Shown in pieces: positions 10,206 to 42,602 of a stretch of 50,698 nucleotides of DNA. The first letter of the stretch is position 1; each line of letters opens with the position of its first letter. The translations under genes were made by a program, and so were the position numbers. Origin of the DNA: Rhizaria sp. SCN 62-66 (Eukaryota); NCBI GenBank assembly GCA_001724265.1, contig MEDY01000063.1:62001-112698 (forward strand), written 5' to 3'. Below the pieces are notes generated by a model. It was not told the DNA's origin. It saw nothing but the letters and a program-made list of their open reading frames with translations, and ran no database searches.

Positions 10206-11638
10206 GCGGGCCGGCCAACTCTAAGTAGGTACTTACATAGAGTGTAGTTGGGGCAGTGACGCGGGCTCTGGAGCTCTGGATGGGAGATAGAAGCTTTTTA
10301 AGCATGTTGGGCCTGCTTTGTCCAAAACGTGCTGGAATGGTGCGGAGATATGGAGGAACGCATATGCAACAACAACGGCCAGAGTCCGTCGGCAAGATTA
10401 CTATCGTTCAGTACATGTATAAGCAAGATCGAGAGCAAGCAACATGGGCCAGATGTTACGCGCAGTGCCTGCGCACCGGCCGTGACAGAGTGAACAGTGA
10501 CATTAAGAGCATCGTATTTGCCTGCTATTCTGCGCTTTCTCTCCACTGCTGCGTGTGATCTCTTTCATCACAGTATTATGAGTGTTAGTGGCTCTCCGTA
10601 TAGCGTTTGTGCTTGCGTCGTGCAATGTACGGGACATCATCTCATTTGTCACTAACGTTTGTTGCGCTGCTTTCTGTTGCTGTCACTGCCACTGTCACTG
10701 CACTGCCGCAGGCGCACTTGCAGTCGCCGCTAGAGTCACTGCCGTTTCTCTCTTTGTCGACGTGCTCATTTACTGTTGAGTTCTGATTTGCGTTCTTGCT
10801 TGTTCAATGGTGCCCGTTTCACGATTGCGTGTAATGCTGTTGTTATTTTTGTTGCTGCTGTTGCTTGATGCGCCTAGGTGAGCGTGTCACGTTTTTTTCT
10901 CGGCTGTATATTTCGACTCCCACTTATCACTCGCTCGCAACAGCCGCACCAAATCATCAACATCTTCAGCCTATCAGTTGCTCCAATCAAAGGCGTCCTT
11001 CACATTTGTGTCGTTGTATTCCATTAGTTTCATATCTTTTAATGCCTAGTTTATTTCAGGTTCTTGGTATTTGTAATCTTTTTTTTGTCTCTTGTTTCTT
11101 GTTTCTCTCAGTGTCGTTTTACGTTTTGTGTTTGTTTTTTTTTGGCCAAATTTTGCGATCTCATGCGAGCAGAAACGTGGCATCAAACTCTCGTAGTAAG
11201 TACATCATCATCAACAACAATCGTGATACTCACTACTAGTATTCGTAACGGTGCATTACCACAGCAGCACAATCAACCATACCAGCGTTAGTAGTAATGC
11301 CAAAATACACTAAACAACATTTCAACACCTCCACCCAACCGTTATTGTTTTTTAGGAACCTCAAGTACCTTAATGGGTAAGTGCTCACGCTCACGGAGTC
11401 AGGGACACATGAACCCGAATTGCATATACTACTGCATATATCCATAAGATTGAGTTAAAACTTGTATTTTCCGACTACATCGTATGTATACATATTGTCT
11501 ATTTGATTATCTGATTCGTATGTTGATTTTTGCTTGCAGTTTTCTTCCTCCATCTGTCACCGACAACTCATGACCACTTTTGTCGGCACCATTTCGCCCT
11601 TACACTACTGTATCTTTAATTGTCTTGCACCACCGGTT

Positions 11639-13068
11639 ATGACGGCACGTGAGATTACAAGCCGTGGCCGCGTGCCTTTGACTAGCACGACCTAGGGCTT
11701 CAACATATTCGCCCGCGCCAGCTCCGACTCTGGGTTGTCTGAGTCCCTGTCGAAGTTGAAGGCGGGTGTTCAAGTCACAGTCGATGCCCTCCGGTCCGGC
11801 GCGTTTAAGCCGCCCTCAAAACTGAACAAGCAGCAGATCACGACGACCTGCCGGCTCCCCGAGGACGGCATCGCGCTCATGCCAGGATTCCCCGGGCTGG
11901 ATGCCGGCGATGAGCTCTTCGCAACCAGGGACACGTTCCTGCTCACGGAGCACATCCTAGCCATCCACGAGAGCATCAAGGCAAACGACCTCTCGCCCTG
12001 GACCTCCACGGCGCGCCGCCGCAACCTCATTGCCAACTCGGTTCTTGACGACGCGATCCTGAAGCGCAAATCCGACGCCGAGCCCTACATCGACTACCCC
12101 AACGACGTGCTCGACGCGTTCCCGCATCTCGCCAAGCGCAGGCCGCTGCGCCTCACGCAGCTAGGCAAGTGCATGTATAAGGGCGCGCTCGTGCACGGCA
12201 TTGAAGGCCGCGGTAATTCCACCGCGCTGAACTTTGCGCTCTTCAAGCTCATCGCCCGCGGCACGCCGGTGCTGATCGAACTAGCAGGCCATCACGTCAT
12301 CTACGTGCCGGGTCGCAAGGGCGAGGTCGAAGTGGTGCCGATGGCAAAGCGTCGCAACGACCTCCCGGGCAAAATCTTCGATGTAATCAAAAACAAAAAC
12401 ACCGTGTACGACTTCGACCCGCAGCAGCTGCCGCGCGAGACGGTCAAGGGCAACTACGAGCCTCTGGCCGACGCCGCGTGCGTCATCATCCCCACAGCGC
12501 CCAACGAAACGGCCGGCGAGTGGCGGCACTTCTACGCCACGTGCGCGCCGCTGCTGCGTCTGCATCTCTACGACCTGAGCAAGGAGGAGTTCTACGCCGT
12601 CACGAGCGTAGTCAACCCAAACATCACGGCCGACCAGAAAGCCCACTACCGCAGGTGGCAGGGCACGGGGCTGCGCGATATTGCCAGCAACGACCTCAAC
12701 CGCAACCTCGATCCCGTCTTCCGCGCCGCCATTCTGGCGTACAAGGGGGAGTAGCTGTTGATGTCCGGGTTGAACACGGACCGCATCTTTAGCGCAGACT
12801 GCTCCGAGCGCCACTTCTTCGGGCTGCGGTGGCCCGACGGGATGAGCGACACTCACATGGCCACCGCGCTGCCGTACATTCACCGTGAGACGGCGCGGCA
12901 GATCCACCTTACCATGCGCGAGAACATGCAGGGGGCCCCGGGTACGCTGCGTACAACGAGACCAAGCACCTCATGCGCCCGGATCCGTTCGTGACGTTCG
13001 AGACTGTGCTAGGCCCGATCGAGAAGGAGATCGCGGAGGAGCGCCGCGACGAAGGCGCGCATGAATAA
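11639..13068 (+). CDS. RHS/Crinkler-like divergent P-loop NTPase-fold protein with two in-frame TAG codons (11693, 12752) and an apparent 1-nt frame slip near 12931-12942; possibly a pseudogene
   Basis: GC3-rich coding-like frame from ATG 11639 (or 11570). GALVHGIEGRGNSTALNFALFKL resembles the degenerate Walker A region of RHS/CRN-type NTPases. After GGGGGCCCCGGG the coding-like codon usage moves to the -1 frame (YAAYNETKHLMRPDPF..GAHE, TAA 13066-13068). Family assignment is by recalled resemblance only. Confidence 0.5.
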
Positions 13069-14174: not shown

Positions 14175-19717
<5,543 letters not shown>

Positions 19718-20306
19718 CGCGCAAAGGTCTGTCGCGCGTCACGGCAACGCAAGGAGAACGGTGTGCGTTACGCTTTGCGCGGGTGCAGACAAGATAACGC
19801 GGAGCTCGAGGTGAGGCAAGAGCAGGGCCTTCTGAGACACACAAAATAGCGTCGGCAAGTGTGAGGTGTCCGTCAATAGAAATATTGCAAATCGAAGTCG
19901 ATATTAAGCAGTAGATTCTAACTTTCCTGCAAATAAAATCATCCCTAGTGCGTATATACAGTCATTAGCTATCCTCTCGCAGAAAGTTCGGGACTAGTCA
20001 TCCCCACGCCGCCACTTGCTGAGTGCAAGACTCGTGAGTACAGTGACCGAAAACACCGAAGAGACTGCAGTAGAGCTCTAAAATATCCACGCATAGGAAT
20101 GAAACGTGACAATGTAGTATAAAATTTCGTGCTTTTTGTATTTTTCCTATTCATTTTCTCTTAGTTTATCATTATCAGTATCTAACGTTTCTAATATATC
20201 GTCTAAGCTCAGTCATACAAGCCGAGCCAAGCCCTTTCAACAACAAAAAATCTCATCATATAAAACAGTCATCGATCCCATATGCGTGCGCACCGTGTCC
20301 CGCCAC

Positions 20307-21182
20307 TTAGAGCATGAACGCGAGGTCCTCGTTGGCCTCGCCGGTGCCGCAGTAGGCGCCCGCGCCCGCGCCCTCGCCGACGGTGATCTTGTACTCGTAG
20401 CCGGGCCACGCGAGCGAGCGCAGCGAGACGGCGTCGCCGGCCTTGTTGGCCACCAGCGACCACACGCCCGCGGGCGTCTGCTCGGCGAGCCCGTCGAGGA
20501 AGGTGGGGCAGTTAGCCACGCCCATGCGGTTGATCGTCGCCAGAGTGCGCTCCAGCTCCGGGGCCCGGAAGAGACCGTACGACGCGAGCTTGGCCGCCTC
20601 GGCGTGGTCGAGGCCGGGGAACGCGTGGTTGCGCGCGATGTCGCCCGTGGCGGTCATCACGTACGCGCCCAGCGGCGTCACGCATGTGTCGTGCTCGATG
20701 CGCGCGACGACGTAGGCGAGACGCTCGATCTCTGTGAGACGGCGGTCGGGCACATGGCGCTCACCGTCCTCGTCCTCGTACTCCTCCTCATCTTCCTCGT
20801 CCTCCTCGGCCTCCCACGCGGCGACCGCATCCGCGTCCTCGGGGTCGGGCTGCCGGCGCGGGTCGCGCAGGCGCGCGGAGGGGTTGCCGGTGAAACGGCC
20901 CTTGATCAGAGGGGCGCGCTCAATGATGAAGGCGTCCAGGTCGGGCAGCTTCGCAAACGTGAGGCCGTTGTCGGAGGAGAAGAAGTGCTGCTTGGCGATC
21001 TTGGTGGAGATGGTGGTGCTCTGCGCGATGAAGTAGTCGCGCTCCTTGCCGGTGATCTTGCCCCAGTACGCGATCGTGGGGATCCGCTCGTGGAGCTTGA
21101 GGACCTTGAGGGCATTGGAGACAGACAGGCGCTGGTCCAGACTCAGGCCCTGGCCGCACGCCGTCACAGCTACGCTAGACAT
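20307..21182 (-). CDS. RSPH9: Flagellar radial spoke head protein 9
   Basis: GQGLS..YWGKITGKERDYFIAQ, GRFTGNPS, LTEIERLAYVVARIEHDTCVTPLGAY, N..FPGL and WSL..LRSLAWPGY..YCGTGEANEDLAFML match RSP9. Ends TAA. Confidence 0.9.
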   Translation of the reverse strand: MSSVAVTACGQGLSLDQRLSVSNALKVLKLHERIPTIAYWGKITGKERDYFIAQSTTISTKIAKQHFFSSDNGLTFAKLPDLDAFIIERAPLIKGRFTGNPSARLRDPRRQPDPEDADAVAAWEAEEDEEDEEEYEDEDGERHVPDRRLTEIERLAYVVARIEHDTCVTPLGAYVMTATGDIARNHAFPGLDHAEAAKLASYGLFRAPELERTLATINRMGVANCPTFLDGLAEQTPAGVWSLVANKAGDAVSLRSLAWPGYEYKITVGEGAGAGAYCGTGEANEDLAFML

Positions 21183-21990: not shown

Positions 21991-24900
21991 ATGAGCAGCT
22001 TGGCGTTGAACTTTACGCCGCGTCTGCGCGCCCTGCAGTATATCCTGCAGTTCCTCGATGACCAGGGCTTCGACAAGACCGCCGCCGCCCTCCGCGATGA
22101 AGCGTACGTCCCTTATCTTCCTGACGATATATCTCCGCACAATTGAACGCAAACAAAGAACATGTTCAGAGAAATATGTAGGCTCTCTGAATATATAATT
22201 TCGTTAAGTTGCATCGCTCTACGTTTTTATGGTCTTGCTTCGAACCTCTTTTTCTATCGCCTCCTCATATGTTTCTGTATCGCTCTCTGACCTGCTGCTT
22301 CCTTTAGCGCATCCGAGGTGACCGGCGTGGACGGCGGCGACGTGCTTCCAGTTCCGCGCAGTGCCAACGCGCTGATGCTGTCTGTCGAAACGCACGCGCG
22401 CGAGGAGGCCGCCGCGGCCGCGGACGCCGCCGACGAGCGCCGAAGCGCCGCCGCCAAGGCCGCCAACGTGGCGGGCCCCATCCGCAAGCGCGAAAACAGG
22501 CGGACAAACTTTCTCCTCTCCACCGGCGCCGCGAACGTCAACGCGGCGAGCAATGCCGACAAGTCTGGTCTTAGCGACGCCAAGTCGAGTGAGAGTGCCT
22601 CGAGTGATGACGCCAAGGCTAGTGACGCTGCGAGCGTCAACAACGCTCAGGATGATGAGTCAAATGCGGTTGCCGTTGAGTTCGTGACTGCTACCAAGCC
22701 CACCCTCGTCATCACCCCTATCACCACCAGCACGCCCGCCGCCAGCTCCAGCTCCAGCTCTAACTCTAGCTCTAGCTCTACCAGTGACGCCACTGCTGCG
22801 CCTGCTGCGCCTGCGGTGACTCCGGTCGCGTCGTCGTCGGTGTTGCCGCAGCACCCGTCGTCGATCCTGGCGCTCGCGGCCCACAGCAACCCCGCGTTCG
22901 GGGCCCGTCTGACCGCCACCGCCGCCGCGGACCACGCCATCCGCATCTTCGCATTCCTGCCCAATCAAGACAATAACAACATCAGTAGTCATCCGAGTGT
23001 GAGTGCTAGTGCGACAGTGGCCGCGATGCCCCAGGGCACGCTGATCGCCACCGCGACCGCCTCCGACCTCGCCGCCACGCCCACGCACTGCGGTCTCTGG
23101 GATCTCCGCACCGCCCGCTCCGCCCCCGCCTCGGCCGCCGCCGCCGCCGCGGCCGCCGCCGTGGCAGCGCCCGACGTGCACCTGGGCGCCGCGCGCGCCG
23201 CCGTGCTGTCGCTTGCCTGGCACCCGCGCCTGCCGCTGCTGCTCGCGGGGCTGGCCAACGGCGAGGTCCTCCTCCTCGGGCTCTGCGGCAGCAACAAGTC
23301 GAGCAGCGACAGCGACTCGGCTGACGCCAGCGCCAGCGCCAGTGCAAGTACTTCTACGGCGCAAGCGCAGGCGCCGCTGCCGCTGGGCGTCAAGGTGCTG
23401 CAGCGTTGGCGCCCCCACTCGCGCTTTGTCACTTCGGTTCAGTGGCTGCTGCCCTCCGGCGCCGGCTTTTGCACTGGGTCGCACGACGGAGCCGTGGCGT
23501 TTTTCGGTCCTGCGCTGTCGTACATCGCGCACACGGCCACGGTCACCAACAGCACTGGCAAGCCCACCAACGGCGACAACAGCTCTAGCTCTAGCTCTCT
23601 GAGCGCGAACGCTGACGCGAGCGCTGCCGCTGCTCCAACTAGTCCGTTCGGCAGCATCCCGAGCACCAGCGAGATCATCCCCGCGGCAGCCTCGAGCCTC
23701 TTCGTCGCGCCCCGCGCCGCGGCGGCCGCGACCGCCGAGGAGCGGGCCAAGGACGCCCACGCCGAGGCCGCGGTGACCTTCGCGGGGGCGCGGCTTAACT
23801 TGCTCGCGAAGTGCGGCTGCCCGGCCACGGGACTCGCGGCACTCGCGACCTCCTTCTCCTCGAGGAGCGCTGGCGACCCAGAGACGGCGACCGAGACTGC
23901 GACCGAGAAGAAGGACAGTGGGGAGGAGGACGGTGCCGCGGAGGGCGAGCTTGTGTCGATCAAGACCCTCAAGGCCATCCTGTTCCCTGTGGCCCAGAGC
24001 ACCAGCTCCGCTGAGACCGCGGCGGCTATTGGCAGCCGCGGCGTCGGCCAGAGCGCGTTCCTGTCGTTCGTGCTGACGGGCAAGTGCGAGTTCCCCCGCC
24101 AGGTCGAGGCCCTCGAGGCGCTGCGACCCGACGGCGAGTACGAGGCCGACTGGGCGCGCTTCCACTCGCCCTCGGCCGGCGACCGCGGGCGCATCCGGGC
24201 GCGCCGCGACGCCCGGCGCGCGCTCGACCGCATGCTCACGGCCCCGCTGCCCACCGCCACCGCCACCGCGAGTGCGAGTAGCGCTGCTGCTGATACTGAT
24301 AACGCTGCGAGTAAGGGCAATGCGAGCAAGTTCGAGCTGTCGTTCAAGGATGAGCACTGCTACGACGATGACAGTAGCCTCCTCGCCGCTGACGAGCTGC
24401 CCGCAGGGTACATGGCGTGTCCCGTGTTGCCGCCGAAACACGCGTTCCTGTGCTCGATCCGCGAGGACAAGTTCCTGTACGTGCTCGACTGGGCGCGCTG
24501 CTGCATCAACAAGACGGTCGACATCAACAAGAACGCGTGGGACGACCACGTGTCCTTCACGCTGCTCTCGCTCGCCGCCGCGCCGAAGGGGTACTTGGTC
24601 GCCGCCGCCACTGACAAGCACCGTGTGGTGCTCTACGACGTCGTTCGCAATGCCGTCGTCAACACCTACTTTGGTGGCGTCAACGGCGACATGAGCACGC
24701 CGAAGCTCGCCTGGGGCGGCCTCGTCAACAGCAACAGCAACGGCGGCAAGGATAAGAGGGCGAATCTCACCGGTTTGATGGAGTTCCTCGCTTGCTCGAC
24801 GCAGGACAACGAGGTCTACGTGTGGCATTCGGCCACGGCCAAGGTTGTCACCACTCTTAAGGGCGGCCACAGCCACTCGATCAGGGCGCTCGTGCCGTAC

Positions 24901-25059
24901 CCGCCGCTCCCGCTGCCCCGGGCGCAGGGCGGCGGCGACTGCGAGACCGAGACCGAAACTGAGAGTGAGGCCGTAGTCGTCGCCACGGGCGGGTTCTTGA
25001 CCGGTGGGTTTGATAAGACGGTCAAGCTGTGGACGCACGTTGGCACCAGTCCCATGTGA
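21991..25059 (+). CDS. LisH + WD40-repeat protein with low-complexity insertions; exons 21991-22103, 22308-25059
   Basis: Exon 1 encodes LisH-like LQYILQFLDDQGFDKTAAALRDEA. Exon 2 has WD repeats (VLSLAWHPRLPLLLAG, HSRFVTSVQW..FCTGSHDG, HSHSIRAL..FLTGGFDKTVKLW). GTACGT-AG intron joins in frame. Ends TGA. Confidence 0.85.
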
Positions 25060-25712
25060 GCGGGCGCGTGAGCCTTGCTGACTGTGAGCTGTGCTGTGCG
25101 GTGACTGACGCTGAAGTGACTGGGAGGAGTAGATTGAGTGTGAGGTGAGTTACAAGCGTGCGATTAGTAATACGCACTCAGTTGCTTTGCAGACATGATA
25201 ATCCTTCAAATGCGAAAGATAATTGTGTCTTAATTAACGAGTCACTTTGTGACTTAGTGTGTTTTGTCGCACTTTTGTGGTTACACAAGCAACATAGGTT
25301 GGTGTTGGTGTGACCTTGTTCTGGTCATTTCAGAAAAGTATACTTTTAGTGAATACAAAGCATTGATATCCTACTCAAATTTGAATATTGCTGTTATATC
25401 CCCTTTTTGAATATAAAAGAAGTGTTATTTTTCAATACGTTATCTATTTTGCAAATCTAGCTTTTGCCTGATCCACGAGTATACTAGCTATAAACACATG
25501 GAGGTGCCACCTGTTTTTCAGAATTTACTCGAGCACAAAATGTATCAACATGATTATTTATTATACTGCAGTAAAATATACACAGTTTCTTTTAAAAATT
25601 TATCGCTATAATTAAAACTCATATCAAAACTATCGTATCTTTTGTTAAAAAGTAAATCGCCTCCGCGCCCAGAGGCGGACTCGAAGGCTTGGCGGCTTGA
25701 TTATAACTCGCT

Positions 25713-28700: not shown

Positions 28701-31700
28701 CTGCTGCCGCCGCCGCCGAAGACGTGGGTACCAACAGGACTGATGACGCCCGTGGGAGTCGTCGAGCTGCCGCCGGTCAGGTGCGATTGCGACGGCTGCT
28801 GCTGCAGCGGGAGCTGCGCGAAGCTATTATTGTGGCTGCTGTTGTAGCTCGACGTGAGGTGACCGTGGGCACCATGCATTCCGTGTCCGTGCCCGTGCCC
28901 CCCGAACCCCGCCGATGACACCGACGGCGTCAGCCCCCTGCCTGCGCCGGCTCCGGCGCCGCGCACGCGCCCGCGCTCCCTGTCGCGCTCGCGCTCGCGC
29001 TCACGGTCCTCGCGCGCTTTCATCTTGGCCGACGCGGCCGCCGCGGCAGCGCGCGCTTCGGCCTCGGCCTGCGCCTCCTCGCGCGCCTTGGTGGCGGCGC
29101 GCTTGGCGACGGCCTCCGCGGTGGCCGTGTCGATCAGGCCGAGCTCGCGCATCACCGTGCGTGCGCGGCCGCGGCGGCGCAGAGAGTCGACCCAGCGCAG
29201 CCTGTGAACAAGAGTAGTGACGAGGAGTTAGAGGCATACATGAGCGAAATTTGAGACACATGCGAATTAACACGCGTTGCGTTATGATGTGATTGTGCAG
29301 TTGTGGGGGAATAATGTAACGTACCTGGCTTCCATGCCAGTGTCTTTGCGGCTGCGCGTATGCTCCGAGAGCTGCGGCCGCAGCGACAGCGGGTCGCGGC
29401 ACGCGTACGCGCGGATGCTGGCGTCGAGGCGCGTGATGAGCGCCAGCGTGGCGGTGAAAAAAAGTCCGAGCTGCTTGCGAATGCGGTGGAACTTGAGGAA
29501 GAAAGAGCCCGCAAAGACGAGCAGAACCTTCTTGAGGCGAGCAGCCTGTTGATGCAGAAAGTGTAAAGCAAAGTTAAGACCAGATAGGTTTGAAGCACAA
29601 GATGTAAGAATGAGGGACTAGAAACAGATACACGTATATTACGCGCCAGTGCAGTTGAATTATACAGATTATGGCCACCGCAATTTGGTGCGCGCAATTT
29701 TGAGTGCGTACCTGTTCGCGCTTCTCGATGTGGACTGCGCAGAGGAGGTAGAAGCGGCGGTCGAGCTTCTGGATTTGGCGCCGCTGCGCCAGCAGCTCGC
29801 CCTGGGCTAGCTCCCGGGCTGCCACGGCGGCGTCCTTCTCGCTCTCCATGCGCATCAACTCGCTGTGAGCAAGACAAAACAAAACAAAGCAAGACGACAA
29901 TACAGAACGATCGTGAGGCGACTAGAATAAAACACATTTCATGCCGCCGCGTGTTATAATAGAATACGATCGGAATAGACTAAATTGAAGATAGATGCAG
30001 AGTAAGCATATTTAAATCGGAGTATTATAAACATATTTGTTCATTTTTGATGCACCATATCACGTACCGTGCGAGCCTGGTCTCCTCGGCCTGCGCCTGC
30101 GTGACGAGCTCGAGCCCGCGGAGGAACTTGCCGTGCGCCACGAGCTCGGCCTCGCGCGACTTGCGGCTCGCCGCCAGGTGCTCCGCGGCGTTCTTCTCCG
30201 CCGCCTCGACCAGCGCGGCCGCGTCCGCCACACTCGCCGCGCGCGCAGCGCGGGCGTCCTCGCTGGCCGCGGCCGCGGCCGCCCGCGCCGAGGCGAGCTC
30301 CGCCCGTAGCGCGGAGGCCTCGGCGCCCCGGTCGCGCCGCGCGAGCGCCAGCTCGTGCCGCAGCTCGCCCGCAGCCTCGGCGCCCGCCGCGGCGTCGGCC
30401 TCGGCGGCGGACGCGCGCGCCAGCGCCGCCGCGAGGTCGTCCTTGAGCTTGCGCTCGCGGCGCTCTCCACGCTGCCGCTGCTCTTCCAGCCGCGCGAGCT
30501 CGGCGGCGTGCGCGGCGCGCTCCGCCCGCTGCTCCTCGCGCAGGAGCGCCAGCTGCGCCTGCAGCTTCGGGGCAATGCCCAGCCCGCCGCCGCGCGCGAG
30601 TGAGAAGGCGGCCCAGTCGACGTTTGTTGCGCCGGGACCTTCGCCGGCGCCAGAACCAGTGCCGGCGGCAGCCGACTTGCCCGCGCCATCGGCGCCGCTC
30701 AGGTCGCTGGCGATGTTGAAGCCCGAGGCTGAGGCGGCCGAGGTGGGGGAAGTTAGGCCACCCTGGTTGCCGAATAAGCCGCTCAGCGTGGTAGCCGAGT
30801 TGTTGGTGCCGCGGTTGGTGTTCAGCCTCGCAGCACCCTGTTGTTGTTGCTGCTGCTGCTGTTGCTGTGGGTGGTGTTGCGCAGGGGTACTTAGATGTGT
30901 AAGTGCCGGCGTGAGCAACGGCAGGTGCGAGTACTGGTTCAAGAACGCTGGCCGCGGCTGCGGCAGGTTGGTCGCGGCCGCCAACGACGACTCTAGAATC
31001 GCCACGGTGGCGTCCGCGGCGTCGGCGTCGGCGGCAGCGGCGGCGGCAGCGGCGGCGGAGAGCGACGAGGGCGTCGCGGGCGGGGACCCGTTGCTGCCGC
31101 TGCCGCTGCCGCTCCCGCTGACGACAAGGGCATTGCTGCTCGAGCCAGAGCCAGAGCTCGAGCCAGAGCCTGCGGTGCTGTGGGTGTGCGAGGCCGAGGC
31201 GGCGGCGGCGGCGAGGCGCGCGGCGGCCAGCGCGACGCGGAGGCGGGAGATCACTACCACGGGCTCGGGCGCGTACAAAAACGGCAGCTCCGTGCTCTTG
31301 ATGCCTCCACCGTGGTTGCTGTTGCTGTTTGCAGAGTAAAGCGCGGTGAGGCGCGTTTGCAGCAAAGGCTCGAGGCCCTGGGGCACAGTCATGCTCACGG
31401 TCACGTTGAGGTTTGCACTAGAAGAGCTAGCATTGCCGTTCGCAGCGGCGCTCGCGGCGTTGACAAAGGCCAGCGCGAGCCCGGTCAAGTGGCCAACGGC
31501 GGCGTTGTTCGCATTACTGCTACCACCGTGCATCAATGAGGACGCGGTCTGACTTTGGTTAGTCAAGCCGCCGCGCGGCCTGATTTGCCGGTTCGCACTC
31601 GTCCCACGCGGTGTGAGCCGCTGCTGCTCGCGGTCAGCGCTGCGCTCGCGACTGCCGCTGCGGTTCGCGTTGGCGTACGCGTTGTTGTTGGCGGACGCGT

Positions 31701-34700
31701 TGTTGTTGGCGTTGGCGGCGTTGTTGTGGTGGGAGCTGATCGTGGACGCGTCCGGGAGGGGCGGCGGCAGCGACAACACGGAGTGCGGCGAGAAGCCCGG
31801 CATGGGCGCGTTCAGGCTGCTGTTCGCGCCCGCGCCACCCGCGCCTGAGACGCTCTCCGTGTCGTCGGCGGTGATGCCGGTGTTGCCGTTCTCGTCGTCG
31901 TTCGCAGTGACAACTTGGGGCACCGAGTTGATGTTGATGCCGTTGTTGTTGTTGTTGTTATTGTTGCCCGCAAAGAAGGTCTGCCGCGCGTTGTTGCTGA
32001 CGCTGCTGCTTTTGTTGCTGTCGGGGTCGTTTGAGTCGCTGGCGTTGTTCGCGGTGTTGCCGCCGCCGCCGCTGGTGTTGTGCGGGTCATGGTCGTCGAC
32101 GGTGACCGTGAGCCCCGTCGTCAGCGCGCGGTTGCTGCTCGCGGAATTTATACCCCCCGCGGCGACCTTAGACCCGCTGCCAGCAGCAGCCGCGGCGCTG
32201 CCGCCACTGCCCGCGGCCGCAGTCCCGCCCGTGGCCGATGCCCCTGCGGCAAGCGCCGCAAGGCCCACGGAGCCGGTCTGGCGCCGTGCGTGGCCGCCCC
32301 TGCCGCGCGCGCTGGCGCCGGCACCGGCGCCGCCGCCGAGGGTGTTTGAGTTCGTGGGGGGCGTGGGCAAGCGGCCCTTGCCGAAGCCGCCGGCCATGTT
32401 CGCGATGGCGTTGGCGGTCGTGTTGGAGGCGGCCGTGGCGGCGGCGGCCGCGGCGGTGGCGGTGAGGGCGTGCGCGAGGGCCAGCGTCCAGGGGTTGCTC
32501 ACAGTCATGCTCACACTCACCCCAGTTGCAGCACTCGAGCCTGAGCCTGAGCCGGAGCTAGAGCTAACGTCGTCGCTGTTGCTGGCAGCGTCGACGGAGG
32601 GGCTGTGCGGCGAGTCCGCGCGCTTCTGCTGCTCAGTGTAAGCGTCCTGCTTGTACTCGAGGTCGCGCAGCCGCGAGCCGCGGACGACGGCGGGCGCGGA
32701 TGAGGCCGAGACGAGCGAGGTGAGCTCGGAGACCAGCGCAGTCGTCAGCTTCTCCTTCTCCTCCTGCTCACCCACACTCGCGCTCGCGCTCGCGGCGGCG
32801 GCCCAGGCGGTGGTCTTCTTGGCCCTGCTACCGCCGCCCGCGCCGGCGCCGGGCAGCGCGGGCGTCGTGTTGGTCGAGCGCGGGGGGAGACCGGCGCCCG
32901 TGCCGGTGACGGAGTTGAGCCCGCTGGCCGAGGGGAGCAGCAAACTAGAGCTGGGGTTGGCGGGGTTAAACGCGGGGGAGCCGTTGCCGCTCATCGGGAC
33001 GGGGGACATGATGCCGCTGTTGGTCGAGCCGCCCACAGTGTTATTGTGACCAGAGGTGCTCACGGCCGCGTCTCCCTCAGTCAGGCCACCAGCGGTGCCG
33101 TTGGGGCCGACGAAGGACGACGACGACACCGCGCCGGAAGTGTGGCCGCCGGCGCCGACACCGAGGGGCGTGGGCGTGGGCGCAGCGACGCGCAGACCGA
33201 GGTTGGGGGAGCCGCGCTTGCTGTTGAAGCTGCCCACACCGCTGCTGTTGCTGCCACTGTTCGCGTCGCCCTTGTTAGCACTGTTGTTGTTACTGTTAGC
33301 TCCGCCAACAAGGTTGCCGGAGCTATTGTTGTGGGTTAACGTACTGTTCATACCGGTGCCATTCGGGTTAGAGATGCGGGACAGCGCGCGCTTGCCCCAG
33401 ACGAGAGCCTTGTTACGCAAGTCCTGAAACGCTACAACAGCGGCCGCGACCTCGGCCTCGGCCTCGGCCGCCTCGGCCGCGGCGGCCCGCAGCAGCGCCG
33501 CAAACAGTGCGGGGTACAATTGCTCAATGCTGGCAATATCGCGGTAGGCCAACACCGCGATGTGGCAGTCAGACTCGGCCACAACGTCGCACGCGCGGCG
33601 CGGCTTAAGTTTGGGACTGGAGGCCGCCGCGGAGGCGGTTGAGTCGGTTTTGTGGTGGTGAGGCGGCATCGACGACGACGCGGCGACAAGCGCACTCGAG
33701 TTACTTTGCTGAGCGCTGTTGGTTTTGCTGTTGCTGTTGCGGTAGTAGTGGTAGCCGCCGAAGCCCATCACGCGGCCCAAAGGCACAACGAGCACTTCGG
33801 ACGATGAGTTGCTTGCACTGGGGCCAGCAGCAGTCAGAGTCGCCGGATTCGCTGCGGCCGCCGTCGCTGTCGCAGAGCTGCTGCCGGCGATCGCACCCGC
33901 ACCCGCACTCGCGCTGCTGCTGCTGCTGCTGCTGCTGATGCTGTTGCTTGAGCTGCTGGAAGTGCGCTGGAGAGCGATCACACTGCCTGTAAGAGGAATG
34001 AAGGCGAAAGTCGCGACGTCGCCGTACTTGCACACAGTCTCTCCGGCCCGTAGATGGATGACCGTGAGCAGGCGCGAGAGAAGCGCGGCTAAGGGGGCCT
34101 CGGTCGCATCTAAGGGTCCCTTGGACGCAGACAACGGAGAGCCGCTTTCAAAGCCGGCGTCAGAACTGCTGTTGCTGTTGTCAGAGCTACGGGTCAGGTT
34201 GAGCGCGGTGGCCAAAGGCGAGGGCTGGCCCGAGGAGCCCCTTAGACATGTAAGTGCGTCCTTGAGCAGCGAGAAGACGACCGCCTCCGCCTCCGCCTCC
34301 GTCTCAGCAGCGCACTTGTCCTCGCTCTCCTCATGCGCGCCGTGGCTGCTCTCCGCCGCGCTCTCGCCATCCTGCGCCTGCGGCTTCACAGTGTGGGAGA
34401 ACAGCGCGGGCGCGAGCGAGTGCGGCAGCCACTTGACGAACAGGTCGCCCCGGTTGACGCTGAGGCCGGCCAGCGCGCCTGTGGCGACAGTGTGGGCGGG
34501 AAACGACGCGGGCAGCGGGAAGTTAAGCCGCGACGGGGCGACGTTGAGCCGCCCGTTAGAAGAGTTCAGCCTGCCTTGGTTGCTGCTCGAGCTAACAGTC
34601 GTCGTCATATTATTGCCCGTTGTCGTCGTCGTTGTTGTCACAGTCATCATCATCGTCGTCGTCGTCGTCGTGCTGGTGGTGGTGGTGACTGTGCCGGCGT

Positions 34701-37700
34701 TGCTGAGCTGTTGCTGCTCGTGCTGCTGCCACAACGCGCTGCCGATGTGATCACCGTAGAAGCCGCACATGTTATTGCTCCAGACGTCAAGCCCGCTCCC
34801 GGTGCCGCCGAACGCGCCGTTCGCGTTGGCGGGGTCAACCGCGAAGCCAAACCCGCCCATGGACAGAAGCGCACCGCCGTTGCCGGCGTTGGCGCTGCTG
34901 CTGCTGGCGGCGGTCGCGGGTGACGACAGAGGCGAGAAGTGCATTGGCAGCGCGCTGCTCTTAGTGTTGGTTGTGCGCCTCGGGTTGACCGCGCCACTCG
35001 TATTGCCAGTCGTGGTAGGCGTGATACCCACGTTGGCGTTGGTGTTGCTGCGCGTGTTGGTAGCGTTGAGAGCGCTCGTCGACCGAGGACTCGCCAGCCC
35101 ACCGCCGCCGCCGCCGGCGCCGCCGCTGGCGTGCGCGTGCGGGTTGGGGGCCGGGCTCGGGGACAGACCGAGCACCGACGACGACACGGCGCTGCTGTGG
35201 CCGCCGCCGTGCACGTTGCCGCTGCCGCTGGTGTGCGTGCCCAGGGACGGGGGGCCGGGGGTGTACGAGTAGTGCTGCCCGCCGGGCCCCAGTCCGCCCG
35301 AGATCGACATCCGCCGCTGCGCAGAAAGCGACATTGCATTGGGAGCGTTGATCGTGCCGCCCGCGGCGCCCTTGTTATGCGCGGCGGCGGCGGTGGCAGC
35401 GGCGGTAGCGGTCGTGACGGCCGCGGAGCCGCGGCGGCCGGCGGCGACGGCTGCGGGCCGGCCCCGGACAGCGCTGCCGCCCGCAGCGCTACTGCCGTGG
35501 GCCGCGCCGTGCGCGTTCGCAGCACCCGGGGTGGTGTTACCGTTGTTGCTGCTGTTGCTGACGAGCGCGCTCGCGTGCAGATTGCTGTGGCTGCTGAGGT
35601 GGCTGCCGCTGTTGTTGTTGGCGAGCGGGGTGCCTGCGCTCGACTGGCGCGAGATGACTCCACCCTTGGCCAATGTAGACTGCGCCGCCGTCGGCGTCCG
35701 GTTGCCGGCTGACGAAGTCGCCGCGGTGGGCGAGTTGCCGTGGGCGGGGGAGGACGGCTTCGAGGGGGGGCCGTGGGTCGGAGAGGTCGGCTTCGAGGGG
35801 GGACCGTGGGCAGGAGAGGTGGCCGGAGAGGAGAGTCGGGAGCCTGCACTCGTGCCACGAGCCGGCTTGGCTTTCGTAGGGCTGCTGCTGCCGCTGCTAG
35901 CGTTCGCATTTACGGTCGCAGCCGCATTGGGGGTTCTAGAGCGCGTGCCCACAGCGTCGTCAGCCGCGCTGGCGTTGACGTTCACTCTAACAGCAACATT
36001 TGCGCTTGAATTAATGCTCGCGCCCGCAGTGGGATTGGGCGCAGTGTTGTTTGCGGTGCTGATCCCGATAGGGTTAGTGTTGTTGGCGTTGTTGTTGATT
36101 GACTTGGTGATGTTGAGGACAAGGTCAGCGTCGTCGTCGTCATCGCCATCGTCATCGTTGGTATCACTGCTATTGTCGCCGTCATCCTTGTTGATCTTTG
36201 CAGGCGCGCTCGCGTAGAGGGCGTTTGCCGTGCCCAGGCTGCTGCGGGTGCTCATCGCTCTCGCCGTGTCGCCGTCACCAGCAATCGCGCTCGCGCTTGC
36301 ACTCGCACTGGCGCTGGCACTGGCGCTCAGGATAGCGCCCGCCTGCGGGTTCAGAGTGTTGGAATCGTTGTTGGTGTTGGTGTTGTTGTTCACCGCCTTG
36401 CTGTTGCTGCTGCTGCTGCTGCTGCTGCTGTTGCTGTGGCTGATGCTGTTCGTGCTGACTTGCCCCAGCGTGCTCACGCTGTCCGAGCTCGTCAGCCGGC
36501 GCCGGCGGCTATTTGTGCTGGCGTTCTTGCTCGCGCTCGCGCTACGGTTGCTAGACCCGACCGCGTGCATCGTCGCCCTCAGGTGGTTGCGGCTCGCGGT
36601 CTGACTCGCGCTATGACTTTCATCGTCGTCGTCGTCGCCGTTGTCGTCGCCGGCGTCGTAGTGGTGCATGTCGTCGTCGTTGTCGTCAGCGTTGTGCGCG
36701 CCGTCCCCGTCGCCCTCGTCGCTGCTGTTGAGCGCGTTGTGGTTGCGGAGACTGAGCCGGTTCGTCGTGAAGATGCTGCCGCGGGGCTTGCGCAACGCAT
36801 CACCGTTCTCGGCCTTCTCCGTCTTCTCAGCGGTGTCAGCCGCAGCCGGCGGCTTCACGTTGTGGTCGACAGCCTCGTCGATAATGAGAGTGTGCTTTTC
36901 AGGAGTTGCCGCATTGTTAGTGTTGTTGTTGTCGGCCTCAGTGGGAGCCTTGGCGGCCTTACCAGCGCTTGAGCCACTGCAAACACTGTTCTTGTCGGCG
37001 TTGGCGTGTGCTTCAGCAGCAGCATCAGCCGTGTTCGCGAGCTCGCTGTCGACGACTGCGACAACGGGGGTGTTTGCAGTCGCACCATTCAGGTGAGCGC
37101 TGTCACTGGCACTGACATGCGCACTGACATGTGCGCGAGCACTGGCGTTGTCGTCCTGACTATGATTGCGACTGGAATTGGATGCGACTGCTGCTGCGGC
37201 ATCAGCGTCGCCGTCATCTCTCGCACTGGCGCTCGCACTGCGGTTAGCTGCAGCACTTGCACTCGCACGGGCACTGGCGCTGGTGCTGGCGCCGTCACGG
37301 ACTCTCGCAGCAGCACTGGCGGCCTCAGCAGCGCTGTTGTTGTCTGCGGCGCTTGCCTTAGCAGCATCGCTGGCATTGACGGCATCACTGGCGCTGACAG
37401 CAGCGCTGCTATGGTTGCCGTTATGCTTTGGAGCGAGGTCGGTGGCATTAGCATCGCTGCTAGCGCTGTCGGCAGCGTCCAAACCAGTCCCTGAGGCAGC
37501 GTGAGCAACTCTAGTGTTGTCGTCGTTGCCCTGATTACGGCCATCGTCGCCATCGCTGTAAATGTAGCTAGCATTGCTGTTGCCGTTCGCGCTCGCGACG
37601 TCATTGTTCTTGTCCTACTCGTCCTCATTGACTCCGCTCCGACTACCCGGGCCGTCGGCGCTGTCAGCCTGCGTTTGCGCCTCCGCCTCCGCCTCCGCGT

Positions 37701-38943
37701 CGTCGTCGCCCTCGGTCTCGGCGAAGCTGCCCAGGTTGCCGTTGCTGCCGGTGGTGTTGTTGTTGTGGAGAGAGTGCGAGTCGTCCGACAGCGAGATCGA
37801 CGACCGTGTCGTCGGCTCGGGCAGCGCCGCCAGAGAGGGCCGCGGCATCGCGAACGCGTCCGCCAGAGAGCCATCGGCGAGAGTGGACGAGGACTGCGAG
37901 GGCGATGCCAACAACGACGACGAGGACGGGAGCGGGGGCGCGAGCAAGTGCTGCTGCTGCGACTGCGCTGAATTAGCGTGGGTATCCATGTGCGCATCAA
38001 CAGTAGCATCAGCATCAGCGTCAGGCGTTGCCTCGGCCTCGGCCTCGGTCTCGGCATCAGGCTCAGCTTCAGGGGCAACAATCGTGGCGTCGTCGTCATC
38101 GTCATTACCGTTGATGTCAGTGTCATTGATGTTATTATGAATGTTATTGTTGTTGTTGTTGGGCACAAAGGAGTGCAGAGTGATGTCTTGCGCCGTGGCA
38201 GTCGCATTGCCAGCCATGACAGCAGCGGAAGTCGCCGTCGCCGCCTCAGCCGTGTCAGACGCAGACTTCGCCTCCGCATTAGCCTCAGCATCTGCCTCCG
38301 CATGAGCCTCAGCCTCAGCCTTAGCCTTGGGCTCGGCCAAAGCCTCGGGCTCGGCCAAAGCCTCGGGCTCGGTCACAGCGGCAGCGACAGCGGCAGTCGC
38401 AGCGTCCGCCTCAGGCTCGGCTTCCACAGCAGGCTCGGCATCAGACTCATCAGCTTCCACGTCAGCCTTCGACTCGTGCTCAGGTTCAGGCTCAGCATGA
38501 GCCGCAGACTGAGTCTCCTCATCGTCGTCAGCCTCAGTCTCAGCCTCTGCGTCGAGGTTATCGGTGGCAGTTGCAGCTGCAGAGCCGTCGCCGACTCTGT
38601 CGCCCTTGTGACTGGCAGTAGCGCTGGCAGCAGAAATAGCAGCAGCTTCGGTCGCGTCCCCGGCGTCGGCGTCCGCAGCGTCAGCTGACGCGCCGTTGCT
38701 GTTGTTGTCAGCGTTGCTACCGACTTCGTCGTCATCATTAACTTCTCTGTTGTTGTCGTGGCTGCCGTTACGAGTGCGCGCGGCAGAAAGCAACAGACGC
38801 ACGGCGCTGCCGCTATCGCGAGCGCTCACATTGGTAGCAGCGACATCAGCGTCAGCATCAGCAATCGAGGCAACCGCAGGAGTGGCGACTGAGGCAGAGG
38901 CTGGGACTGCCTCGTGTTGGGAAGGTCCCGGTGAGTCAGACAT
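25713..38943 (-). CDS. Giant (~4,186 aa) low-complexity A/S/N/G-rich protein with a cyclic-nucleotide-binding-like domain and C-terminal coiled coil; exons 38943-30068, 29862-29712, 29545-29325, 29201-27275, 27098-25713; one in-frame TAG at 37615-37617
   Basis: ORFs 37615-38943 and 30025-37482 share a frame and are separated only by one TAG plus 44 sense codons. Four GTACG-AG introns join the downstream exons in frame (12,561 nt total). cNMP-like segment IHLRAGETVCKYGDVATFAFIPLTGSV..G..RRACDVVAESDCHIAVL at ~33500-34075. Ends TGA. Confidence 0.72.
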
Positions 38944-40166
38944 CGCTCAAAGCGGCTTGCTCACGCAAATGATGAACACAAGCGTAAAAGGCCTAGCTGT
39001 AGGTTCAGAAAACAGTCAAAAAGAAAGCGTATGGGCAGTGAAATTCAGGAAAAAGCAAGCTTGGTCTGAGAGAGAAGCTGCTGGGGCAGAGAGGGACGAG
39101 GAGGGGGCGCAGAGAAGGGGTTAGAGTGAGACTTAAGGAAAATAAAGGAACACAATTAAAATGAAAAAGAACAAAGAGTACAATACTTGAAATGCGGGTT
39201 TGTTGACGAACAAAAAAGCGCGATAGAGGTTCCTAAAGTTGCTGCGACTGGATTGCAGAGTAACTGCAACGGACTGGGTCACGGTCACTTTGCTGGCGCC
39301 GACTGGCGAAGATGAATCGAACACGAATAGAACGAGTCAAGACTAACGTTGTTTGAATTAAAACGTAGATTTATACATTTGTAGAACTGTTTATTGATCA
39401 TATTAAAACGACTCACTTTCTATATCAAAGAACAAATACGTCATCACCATAGAGAAACAAAAATAATCAAAGCCCACCAAGCACATTGCGCGTGTGCTTG
39501 GAATATACTTTAATAGTACGTCTTATCTTGTTGTTGTTGTTGTGGTTTGCCCGACATTATTAAGCGTTGCCATAGCCGTTGTTGTTCGTTCCATAGGGAG
39601 TCGTCGCATCAGTAAAGCAGCAAGTAGCAAACAACATCAGAGTGAGTTGCGTGATAAGGACGACACCTCTCGTGCCGTGTGACTGCTGCTCGCGCGCTGT
39701 TGTGTGGTTTGTTGTTCGTACAGTGCTGAACCAAACAATCTAAGTAACGTATAGCACTGACACACCAGGAACAACAGAAGCGAGAAATTACGGCTACATA
39801 ATCCGATTGCGACCGCGCCTCAACGCTCCCCCGCTCGCGTCCCATTCGCACACCTACCAGTGAACACGAATCGAACGCGTAAAAACAAACAACACGACAA
39901 AACAACGCTCACTTGCTGATTTTCCGCCCGTTTCTGTTGTGTGTTATATCTTGTCTTCATGTTTTCTTTTCTTTTGAACTTATATTTTACACTCTCATAA
40001 CCTCCGTTGTCGGGTACAGTCTCTTGACAAGGCAAAAAACTCACACAACTCAAGACTTAGGCTTTACACTAGTGCGTTATAGCGATGCCATGAGTCCGAC
40101 TTGCTGTGCGTGTTTACCCCTATCTCCACGTAAGTACCCCATAGACAGTCTAAGTATCCTGTGCGC

Positions 40167-42087
40167 TTAGATGAAGCCGTCGTCATCGAAGACGTTGTCG
40201 TCGAGGGCGTCCTCGAGGGTGGCGAGGTCGAGCTTGTAGCGCATGATGCCGCCGATGCCACCGAAGCCCTTGCAGAACTGGGAGCCTTCCTGGGACTTGT
40301 CGCTCACGAAGGCGATCTTGGCGCCGAACGACTTGTAGTTGTTCGACAGCCACTCGACCATGAGCTCCTGTGTAGTCGCGATGGTGCGCAAAAGCAGAAA
40401 ATGAGACATATAAATGAGGTGAGTTAGATTCACGTAAAGGATTTGTTGTTGTTGAAAATATCATTGTTGACATTGAATACACTCGAGAGTAATTTAAGCA
40501 CGACTAATACACATTTTGGCTCGTTTTAGGACATACCTGGTCGACGAGGTCGAGGGCGACGTCGTCGGCGGTCTTGAAGAACGAGGGGTCGCGGGTCTCC
40601 TCCTCGTTGTCGACGATCTTGATGACCGTAGCGCCGGTCTCCTTGTTGCGGAGCTCGAAGCGGATCATCTCGAGCGCCTCCCAGACGATGATGGTGTCGA
40701 CGGCCGAGGCCTCGAGCGCGTTGAGCGTGTCCTTCCAGCCGAAGCAGTAGAGACCAGTGTCGCGGGAAATCTCACTGAAGAAGTTCGTCAGCAGGGTCTT
40801 CTCGCGCATGAACTTGACGTCGCGGAGGGAGTCCGCAGCCATGTCGATGGCCTGTGGGGAAAGGGTTCGGAAGCGAGAGATGTGTGAGTAACAGTTGCGA
40901 AATACGATATAACACAAGATGAACACATACAATACATTAACCAATAAATACTACGACAAGATAATTGCAAAGGGATTGTGCGTACCTGAGCGAAGCCGTT
41001 CTCGCCGCCGTATGAGATATCGACGATGTTGAGGATGATGTTCTGCAGACGGGGGTCGAAGGTATTAGCCTCGGCGAGCTGGGCCTTGAAGTCGGCGGAA
41101 CCGGCGAGAATGAGGCCGGCGACGTTGGGCATGTTGTTGGTGATGAAGATCTGCGTGGTGAGCTCGGCGACCTGCGTGATGTAGTTCTGGCGCTTCTCCT
41201 TGCGGATACGCGCGAAACGGGGCGCGGACTGACCACCACGGCCGTGCTTCTTGGGCAGGTCGACGGAGATCTTCTTGAGCACGACGCGCGCGTTGCCGGC
41301 GAGCGTGCCCCAGAGAGTGCCGGAACCGTCCATGATGATGAAGCCGTACTTCTCGTCGTCCTCGAGCAGGCCGCGGAGCGCCTCGGTGTGGAACTGGTTG
41401 TCGCACATGTACATGGACGTGTTGATGGGCTTGAAGGGCTCGACGTCGATCGAGACCTTTTTCTACTTGCCGTCGGAGTTGAGCACTTCACCGCAGTACA
41501 GGATGAGGCCGTTGTTGGGGATGCGGGGGAAGAGCTTGAGGCGCTGCTGGACGGACGTGATGGCGGACAGCACGGAGAGGCGGTTCACGCGGGACTTGAT
41601 GTTGGAGGCCTTGGAGTACTCTTCCGTGAGCATGGTGGAGATGCGCGAAACCTGTTCCTTGGGGGGAACGACCAGGGAGATAACGGACGAACCATTGCTG
41701 TAAAGTCGCGCAAGGAAAACAAGAGTACGGGAGCGAAGGCGGACGAGATCACGGGCGCAGAGTGAAAAGCGGGAAGTGTAGGGAGGAAGTTTGGTTGGGG
41801 TGGACAGGGGATGGAAAATTAGAAGGGAAGAACGCACAAAAACAGAGTGCGGGGAGAAATACAAGGAATAATAAAGTGAGTTCTACTGCGCAATGTATGT
41901 TACATAGCCGATTGGCGGGTGATACGAAGCACAGGAAAGGCGCAAAGCGCGGCACGAGAGAGGTTGAAGGGCAAGGAGAGAAGACGGACCCGCGCGCAGC
42001 CTCGAGGTTGCGAATAAGCTTCTTGAGCTTCCATTGCTCAATAGCGAGCTCCTCAGGATCGAGGTTATGAGGCTTCTTAACGGACAT
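40167..42087 (-). CDS. ETF1: Eukaryotic peptide chain release factor 1 (eRF1), 441 codons, with in-frame TAG at codon 111; exons 42087-41990, 41697-40986, 40851-40537, 40367-40167
   Basis: [75 protein letters not shown] (GGQ), [10 protein letters not shown] and [16 protein letters not shown]. Three GT-AG introns join in frame. Ends TAA. Confidence 0.97.
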
Positions 42088-42203
42088 GTTCGGACTAAAC
42101 ACAAACTACCGGGTTGAGCGAAGGATTACACCAAAAATGACGTGTTGCGAAACCCCCAATGGGCCGCGCCGACCCGGCCCACACACAAAAAACACACGCG
42201 GAT

Positions 42204-42216
42204 TTTTTTGCGAACC
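42204..42216 (+). promoter_or_regulatory. Candidate promoter motif TTTTTTGCGAACC (between divergent eRF1 and PRR11-like)
   Basis: 12/13 match to the motif at 1596-1608. Confidence 0.4.
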
Positions 42217-42602
42217 AGTCTCGTTGCTGGCTGGTTCTCAACAACGGATAGATTCGCCATTATTTTAAAAGCGTATCAATCTCTGTATACACAACGCCCA
42301 AATGTGGATATAACGAGTGAACAGGAAGATTATGCAATGTTATGTTTGGGTTGCATAATAACTTTTCTTTTCTTGCCGCAAAGAGGACGAACAATGAGCT
42401 TGAATGAAACATCCAAACGAGAGCCTCTTGCATGCTCACAGTTCCTTCCATTCCCCAGCCATTTTCAAGGCTGAACCAATATATTTCTAAGTATAGACTC
42501 ACCACACAAAACAAACAACTACATCACACTTCAACACTCTTTCACAATTTGCGATATGGCTTTTGCACCCCGAATATCTTGTTTCGCAGACTCAACGGCT
42601 CG

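Follow-up and report, generated by a model that had tools for sequence, protein, structure and literature searches.

Unusual stop-decoding residues and an in-frame TAG in a eukaryotic eRF1 gene suggest that UAG may be read as a sense codon, probably glutamate

The gene for eukaryotic release factor 1 (eRF1) considered here lies on the minus strand, at 40167-42087, of a stretch of 50,698 nucleotides from contig MEDY01000063.1 (assembly GCA_001724265.1, Rhizaria sp. SCN 62-66; contig positions 62,001 to 112,698). This whole stretch is referred to below as the window. The gene is complete, with four exons, 441 codons and TAA as its end codon, and it carries an in-frame TAG at codon 111, while the pocket that decodes the stop codon differs from that of human eRF1 at six positions. 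The interpretation favoured here, with a probability of roughly 0.55, is that the gene encodes a functional, expressed eRF1 in an organism that most likely reads UAG as an amino acid, probably glutamate, and still stops at UAA and UGA, and that the combination of changes in the pocket lowers the efficiency of the factor at UAG. The parts of this interpretation do not stand equally firm. A sense meaning of UAG in the source organism is quite probable and, once this is granted, glutamate is likely to be the amino acid. The contribution of the listed substitutions to the discrimination against UAG falls a little short of even odds.

All three domains of eRF1 are recovered by Pfam: PF03463 (4.3e-22), PF03464 (9.4e-37) and PF03465 (1.3e-14 and 3.5e-14). 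In the gene model, exon 1 (41990..42087) starts with the ATG at 42087-42085, and exon 2 (40986..41697) encodes the N domain and most of the M domain, matching the families eRF1_1 and eRF1_2. Exon 3 (40537..40851) encodes the C domain (eRF1_3, 1.3e-14), and exon 4 (40167..40367; eRF1_3, 3.5e-14) ends in ...DDDGFI followed by TAA at 40169-40167, with a C-terminus that agrees with that of P0005, the nearest relative in the databases. The exons are separated by introns of 292 nt (intron 1, 41698..41989), 134 nt (intron 2, 40852..40985) and 169 nt (intron 3, 40368..40536), all with GT..AG borders. The coding sequence has 60% GC, and 396 of the 442 codons of the spliced frame end in G or C; the introns are poorer in GC (37-52%). 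Exon 2 aligns without gaps to residues 30-266 of human eRF1 (chain 1dt9_A, E 1e-106), so that the human numbering can be used directly. The catalytic GGQ motif is intact (41229..41237, codons 187-189).

The expression of the gene was followed by the alignment of four runs to positions 39900-42300 of the window: X5 (cDNA), X7 (poly(A) RNA), X3 (DNA) and X4 (contigs of a variant strain). The runs X3, X5 and X7 come from three further studies, and another run, X1, is possibly the window's own source. Two cDNA contigs of X5 lack exactly the three modelled introns. Contig 14 links 41990 to 41697, skipping the 292 nt of intron 1, and contig 12 contains the joints of introns 2 and 3. Upstream of the gene (42087-42088), the match of the variant-strain contigs of the X7 RNA and of X4 breaks off exactly at the ATG, and beyond it they carry a different, mutually similar sequence, possibly a 5′ leader that has diverged or one added by trans-splicing.

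The in-frame TAG (41463..41465, minus strand) corresponds to E107 in the alignment to human eRF1. It falls inside the region 41385-41697 covered by an earlier note on this DNA, in which it was not mentioned, and with the bacterial translation table the eRF1 frame is split in two at this codon. The same TAG is found in X5, X7 and X3. Contig 14 of the X5 cDNA spans it, correctly spliced, and it is kept in the poly(A)-RNA contig of X7 (41035-41686) and in the DNA contig of X3 (40351-41976), in each case with 0 differences from the window. Its presence in the DNA and RNA of separate studies means that it belongs to the genome of the population across studies and years and that it is present in the mature mRNA. 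RNA editing of this codon is ruled out, because the RNA contigs retain the TAG. Such an mRNA can yield the full-length factor only if UAG is decoded.

The meaning of the codon is indicated by a sister strain, in which a change of A to C at plus-strand position 41465, found in an X4 contig, turns TAG into GAG (Glu). The eRF1 gene carries 33 strain differences, 31 of them seen in X4 only and two (42025 and 42043) also in an X7 RNA contig. Synonymous third-position changes account for 31 of the 33, and the other two are E148D and the change of TAG to GAG; downstream of the TAG, 29 of the 30 differences are synonymous. The gene is under strong purifying selection. As TAG/GAG is the only first-position difference in it, the simplest reading is that the two codons have the same meaning, and if UAG stands for glutamate, this strain difference is synonymous as well. 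In 240 eRF1 homologues pooled from two database searches, column 107 is occupied by E in 223, by D in 16 and by V in one. Fragments of the sister-strain eRF1 were absent from the best 120 length-matched protein matches.

The use of TAG elsewhere in the window was assessed by a test of codon usage in all six frames, for which 15 segments of open reading frames (ORFs; 6574 codons) served as the training set, with eRF1, a giant ORF and an orphan gene excluded. When 30 stop-free codons are required on each flank, two in-frame stops pass, and both are TAG: the one in eRF1 and codon 442 of the giant ORF (38943-30025, minus strand). No in-frame TAA or TGA of the window passes the test with these flanks, and the outcome is the same with the giant ORF included in the training set; relaxing the test to shorter flanks and a low threshold also admits one TGA, which lies antisense to the giant ORF. 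Both 30-codon flanks of the second TAG (37615..37617, minus strand) score best in their own frame of the six. The codon is found in the context GAG GAC GAG TAG GAC AAG, within an acidic run (...NEDE-TAG-DKN), and the next in-frame Met is located about 330 codons downstream. A third, weaker in-frame TAG occurs on the plus strand (12752..12754) in the orphan gene, which resembles Crinkler effectors and retrotransposon hot spot (RHS) proteins; its downstream codon score is weak, the frame changes further on, and little weight is given to it. The ten ORF ends taken as gene ends consist of six TAA, four TGA and no TAG, in a small sample of which only the ends of eRF1 and of a radial spoke gene (RSPH9) were checked against homologues. 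The end codon of eRF1 itself is UAA, and other ORFs end in TGA.

Several candidates were set aside in this census. A scan based on G or C at the third codon position (GC3) yielded 21 TAG against 4 TGA and 3 TAA, and was rejected as evidence for TAG as a sense codon, since the hits are mostly in antisense frames of GC3-rich genes. The excess of TAG arises there from NNC-TAN on the sense strand, with TAN as a Tyr codon, which reads TAG in the antisense frame. GC3-rich genes also produce long spurious antisense ORFs of up to 829 codons (e.g., 22660-25149, minus strand), which are a trap for any count of stop codons. The TAG at 11693 was not counted, as the orphan gene probably starts downstream of it and the Atlas record begins after it. 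Other in-frame stops (near 1476, 5020, 6950, 19080, 21190, 48075 and others) were also left out, being intron ends or untranslated leaders.

The placement of a UAG within a release-factor gene may alternatively be explained by autoregulation, in which UAG is still a stop codon, or an ambiguous one, and serves as a feedback sensor. At a high level of eRF1, translation would end at codon 111, and at a low level, near-cognate or suppressor decoding would lead to the full-length protein, comparable to the schemes of bacterial RF2 and the Mimivirus factor. Such a sensor would fit the great rarity of in-frame TAG in the window and the location of one of the two solid TAGs in the release-factor gene itself. 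It also has a precedent, since the class-I factor of Mimivirus is translated through two internal stops in a bacterial-like autoregulatory scheme (PMC3521657). Moreover, position 107 accepts substitution, with the yeast E107A mutant being viable and terminating better (PMC4381064), so any inserted residue would work, and with E55, Y125 and N129 kept, the recognition of UAG may persist (PMC3632111). However, the second internal TAG is located in an unrelated gene, with coding sequence on both sides and the first Met about 330 codons downstream, and none of the ten gene ends is a TAG. The base 3′ of the eRF1 TAG is A, and a purine after the stop codon favours termination, not leakiness. Two RNA libraries readily gave assemblies of the spliced mRNA, even though the "premature" stop is located 5′ of two exon junctions. 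Finally, invariant residues of the pocket are changed, which a pure sensor would not need. Autoregulation is therefore an unlikely explanation of the in-frame TAG.

The substitutions of the pocket are T32S, M34V, G57S, T58K, L126M and K130Q, relative to human eRF1. The minus-strand translation of 41385-41697 contains NGSSVISL, NRLSVLS and DGK(TAG). The GTS loop is replaced with G31-S32-S33 (41685..41693), in which S32 is encoded by TCG at 41690-41688, and it is followed by V34 (41682..41684). The segment 41592..41615 encodes S57 (41615-41613) and KASNIKS, with the NIKS intact, and the YxCxxxF motif reads YMCDNQF (41391..41411). E55 (inside 41592-41624) as well as L69 and S70 (inside 41565-41579) are retained, as are S33, N61-S64 (NIKS), Y125, C127, N129, F131 and GGQ. 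The six substitutions, together with the retention of E55, NIKS, S70, Y125, C127 and F131, had been listed in the earlier note, and all of them were found where it had placed them. The range 41615-41592 given there for KASNIKS holds as a pair of coordinates, but it includes S57, and KASNIKS alone occupies 41612-41592. The traits of the eRF1 family are present (three domains, GGQ, NIKS, E55, S70 and the Y, C and F of YxCxxxF), while the strict GTS loop is departed from. The GSS loop is a departure within the eRF1 family and gives no ground for excluding the gene from it.

The rarity of these residues can be seen from the column counts. Position 32 is T in all 201 of the 240 homologues that have the column (39 do not), and position 57 is G in 240 of 240. 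Position 58 is T in 239, with K in P0005 only, and position 34 is M in 237, with V in P0005 only and two sequences without the column. At position 130, K is found in 235, R in 4 and H in one, and at position 126, L in 224, M in 15 and T in one. S32, S57 and Q130 were not found in any of the 240 homologues. A second set, drawn from clusters at 50% identity, comprises 149 representatives and extends to much more divergent factors; the window's own fragment, P0392, was excluded from it. Here, position 32 is T in 91, with other residues in eight poorly aligned N-terminal ends, and S32 occurs in 0 of 99; S57 is present in five representatives, K58 in four, and Q130 in none of the 135 with the column. 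S32 and Q130 are hence absent from about 390 other eRF1 sequences in both sets, S57 is limited to 5 of the 149 representatives, and V34, K58 and a non-Lys residue at position 130 recur in the closest relative. Among 31 eRF1 loci in metagenomic DNA other than the window's own (L001), GTS is read in all 25 that cover the loop. Judged by these counts, the substitutions are beyond chance and far from ordinary. The earlier note had described the motifs as nearly invariant in standard-code eukaryotes and variable in lineages with variant codes. In the sequences counted, the substituted positions are invariant or close to it, and T58K and K130Q recur in variant-code ciliates (PMC4695839).

Some more distant sequences deserve mention. 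The protein P0509 (382 aa) is a divergent eRF1 with a high content of Asn, Ile and Lys and with 48% identity to exon 2. It contains the pair S57-K58 (EYSKSSNIKS), S-T-S in place of GTS and Val at column 107, and its S57-K58 pair looks like a convergent occurrence. The AT-rich metagenome loci L016 and L027-L031 (35-37% GC) carry GKATNIKD in place of GTASNIKS and thus have T58K in common with the eRF1 of the window. In four of the six, TAA stands in frame within the first 50 codons, at a column that is otherwise Gln, and the loci are ciliate-like recoders of UAR (UAA and UAG).

The relative P0005, which is 84% identical over exon 2 and the only one above 72% identity, has V34, K58, M126 and H130, keeps T32 and G57, and contains Val at column 107. 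Changes peculiar to the lineage with the TAG, if there are any, would be S32 and S57. The contig of P0005 is not among the metagenome loci returned, which are L001, i.e., the window itself, and the 31 more distant eRF1 loci. This relative bears on a further alternative, in which UAG is a sense codon and the changes in eRF1 are a product of lineage drift, with little or no effect on the discrimination of UAG. An efficient suppressor tRNA would then outcompete an omnipotent eRF1, a mechanism argued for in the case of Tetrahymena. Drift would fit the presence in P0005 of four of the six changes (V34, K58, M126 and a non-Lys residue at 130), the neutrality of T32S in human eRF1 (PMC3632111), and the rhizarian exLh, in which the classic motifs are unchanged and UAG stands for Leu (PMC5304391). 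What drift leaves unexplained is that S32, S57 and Q130 replace invariant or near-invariant residues across about 390 sequences, for the loss of so strong a constraint at three pocket positions within a single lineage calls for an explanation. In addition, K130Q has been put forward as a change that loosens D128 together with the YxCxxxF loop, and activity on UAR is lost in the DPQ mutant (PMC3632111). Drift alone is accordingly considered improbable, though for the protein side it is a live alternative.

In the favoured interpretation, i.e., UAG as a sense codon with a weakened eRF1, the UAG would be decoded by a tRNA with the anticodon CUA, derived most simply from tRNA-Glu(CUC). The pocket keeps the parts needed for U1 (NIKS), for UGA (S33 and S70, tied to the G of UGA; PMC4381064, PMC3632111) and for catalysis (GGQ). 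Its changes fall in the GTS loop (T32S), beside E55 where the TASNIKS helix is entered (G57S, T58K), and in YxCxxxF (L126M, K130Q). T32 is reported to form a hydrogen bond with the guanine of UAG, as cited in PMC5304391, and the TASNIKS and YCF motifs of Tetrahymena increase readthrough at UAG only (PMC4695839). It would be the combination of these changes, rather than T32S alone, that lowers the efficiency at UAG, so that the tRNA wins the competition. We infer the genome-wide sense reading of UAG, its glutamate identity and the causal role of the substitutions from these elements taken together. The earlier note had proposed that this eRF1 may be specific for UAA and UGA, in support of UAG recoding. 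The recoding is strengthened by the in-frame TAGs, the lack of TAG among the ten gene ends and the rare residues, while a role of the substitutions in UAG blindness is a plausible hypothesis.

A bolder version of this interpretation is tentative, at somewhat less than even odds. It assumes an uncatalogued nuclear code, with UAG for glutamate and UAA and UGA as stops, in a non-ciliate, flagellated, GC-rich eukaryote of activated sludge, and the reassignment would be locked by the UAG in the eRF1 gene itself. An eRF1 variant that still terminates at UAG would truncate its own synthesis, and the gene would in this way select for a UAG-blind factor, by way of a new set of pocket residues (S32, S57, K58 and Q130) that tells UAG apart from UAA.

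A number of observations weigh against the favoured interpretation. The T32S mutant of human eRF1 is near wild type in vitro, and the residues E55, Y125 and N129, which have been tied to the third base of UAG, are all retained here (PMC3632111). The four changes held in common with P0005 count here as well; exons 2-4 of this relative are free of in-frame stops. The evidence for the GAG variant comes from one contig with a depth of 4.93, and a single contig below 5 may be an error, although it carries two more synonymous differences, which is consistent with a real strain. Position 107 tolerates other residues (PMC4381064), so its conservation alone does not establish glutamate. Two solid and one weak in-frame TAG occur in about 10,000 coding codons, in comparison with 257 GAG among the 6574 training codons. 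With TAG being so much scarcer than GAG, the decoding of UAG may be inefficient, recent or local. The window contains no tRNA of any kind, and hence no tRNA(CUA), and no Rfam match.

A dead allele, a pseudogene copy or an assembly error, with the TAG as a nonsense codon and a second intact eRF1 serving the cell, is very unlikely, for although the GAG of the sister strain would make the TAG a recent single-base change and the gene with the weak third TAG undergoes a frame change, the same eRF1 TAG recurs with no differences around it in the DNA and RNA of X3, X5 and X7 besides X1, the transcript is spliced and polyadenylated, the strain differences downstream are synonymous with one exception, and the database matches include no second eRF1 of the lineage, with P0005 alone above 72% identity.

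The organism behind the window, an uncultured eukaryote, is characterised by its other genes and by its sources. The contig is recorded from wastewater, bioreactor and activated-sludge metagenomes, and the GC content of the window is 50-70%. A full-length homologue of the radial spoke head protein 9 (RSPH9) is encoded on the minus strand (20310-21182), with a TM score of 0.81 to RSPH9 clusters and Atlas matches to animal clusters. As the contig carries this gene, the organism must form a motile flagellum or cilium. An alanyl-tRNA synthetase of the bacterial or mitochondrial type (14175-19738, minus strand) is present in at least four ORF pieces with long low-complexity inserts, and its best named eukaryotic matches are zygomycete fungi, at 29-37% identity. 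A piece of this protein is on record from three contigs, the longest of 104,621 bases. The fungal matches of the synthetase and the animal matches of RSPH9 give at most a weak hint of an opisthokont, a basis too thin for naming the lineage.

The giant ORF (30025-38943, minus strand; 2972 codons, internal TAG at 37617-37615) is very rich in runs of Ala, Asn, Ser and Asp, and its match to a cyclic-nucleotide-binding family is below threshold (21.4 bits in relation to a cutoff of 27.5). The orphan gene (11633-13068, plus strand), with the TAG at 12752 and a TAA end at 13066-13068, has Crinkler-effector-like and retrotransposon-hot-spot-like Atlas neighbours, and no Pfam family matched it. At about 12925-12940, near a GGGGGCCCCGGG run, its frame shifts by one, which may reflect decay of the copy or an indel introduced by the assembly.

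The interest of this case lies in the coupling of the two UAR codons. UAA and UAG nearly always change their meaning jointly, and reassignments of UAG only are few (PMC5304391, PMC11687900), while the way in which one eRF1 distinguishes UAG from UAA is still debated. Here, a natural factor keeps NIKS, E55, Y125, N129, S33 and S70 and is changed at T32, G57, T58 and K130 in a host still stopping at UAA. Such a factor offers a compact group of residues on which third-base discrimination can be tested, and possibly a guide for the engineering of amber suppression in eukaryotes (PMC12440015). If the glutamate assignment is true, it would amount to a new code table, and the UAG within the release-factor gene would be an example of a self-enforcing reassignment.

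In comparison with known systems, the case would belong to an established type, stop-codon reassignment with a modified eRF1. Glutamate as the meaning of UAG is otherwise known only from codes in which UAA has changed its meaning too (PMC11687900, PMC10553269). A limited literature search, made without supplements, returned no prior report of a nuclear code with UAG as Glu and UAA as a stop, of the organism of the window, or of an eRF1 with the same set of changes. Reassignment of UAG only, with UAA kept as a stop, is known from Iotanema spirale (UAG for Gln) and from the rhizarian exLh (UAG for Leu) (PMC5304391). As in the window, the GTS loop of Iotanema is changed at T32, but to Gly (T32G), whereas the S32 found here keeps a hydroxyl group. 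The eRF1 of exLh carries L69A, while L69 is kept here. Unlike either of them, the eRF1 of the window further has G57S, T58K and K130Q, and the amino acid proposed for its UAG is Glu, not Gln or Leu.

Among ciliates, T58K occurs in Tetrahymena (KATNIKD) and Blepharisma (KSSNIKS), and K130Q in Paramecium (YFCDPQF), as listed in Table 2 of PMC4695839. Both changes are present here. Those ciliate lineages, however, reassign UAA and UAG together, or UGA, whereas here NIKS, N129 and S70 are unchanged and UAA keeps its use as a stop. The AT-rich loci of the ciliate type, L016 and L027-L031, also differ from the window in its GC content (50-70%) and in the length of its eRF1 introns (134-292 nt). Glutamate is the established meaning of UAG in peritrich ciliates, Blastocrithidia nonstop and Oligohymenophorea sp. 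PL0344 (PMC11687900, PMC10553269, PMC12153298), while in the organism of the window it is proposed. In all three, UAA is reassigned too, to Glu in peritrichs and in Blastocrithidia (where UAA also ends genes) and to Lys in PL0344; here, UAA is a stop. The discussion of PMC11687900 gives Leu, Gln and Ser as the amino acids assigned to UAG with UAA as a stop, and Glu is not among them. The location of a stop codon inside the gene of the factor that reads it is also known from bacterial RF2 and from the class-I factor of Mimivirus (PMC3521657). These two use frameshifting, readthrough or both at a codon that is still recognised, while in the window a second gene with an in-frame TAG accompanies an eRF1 with a mutated pocket.

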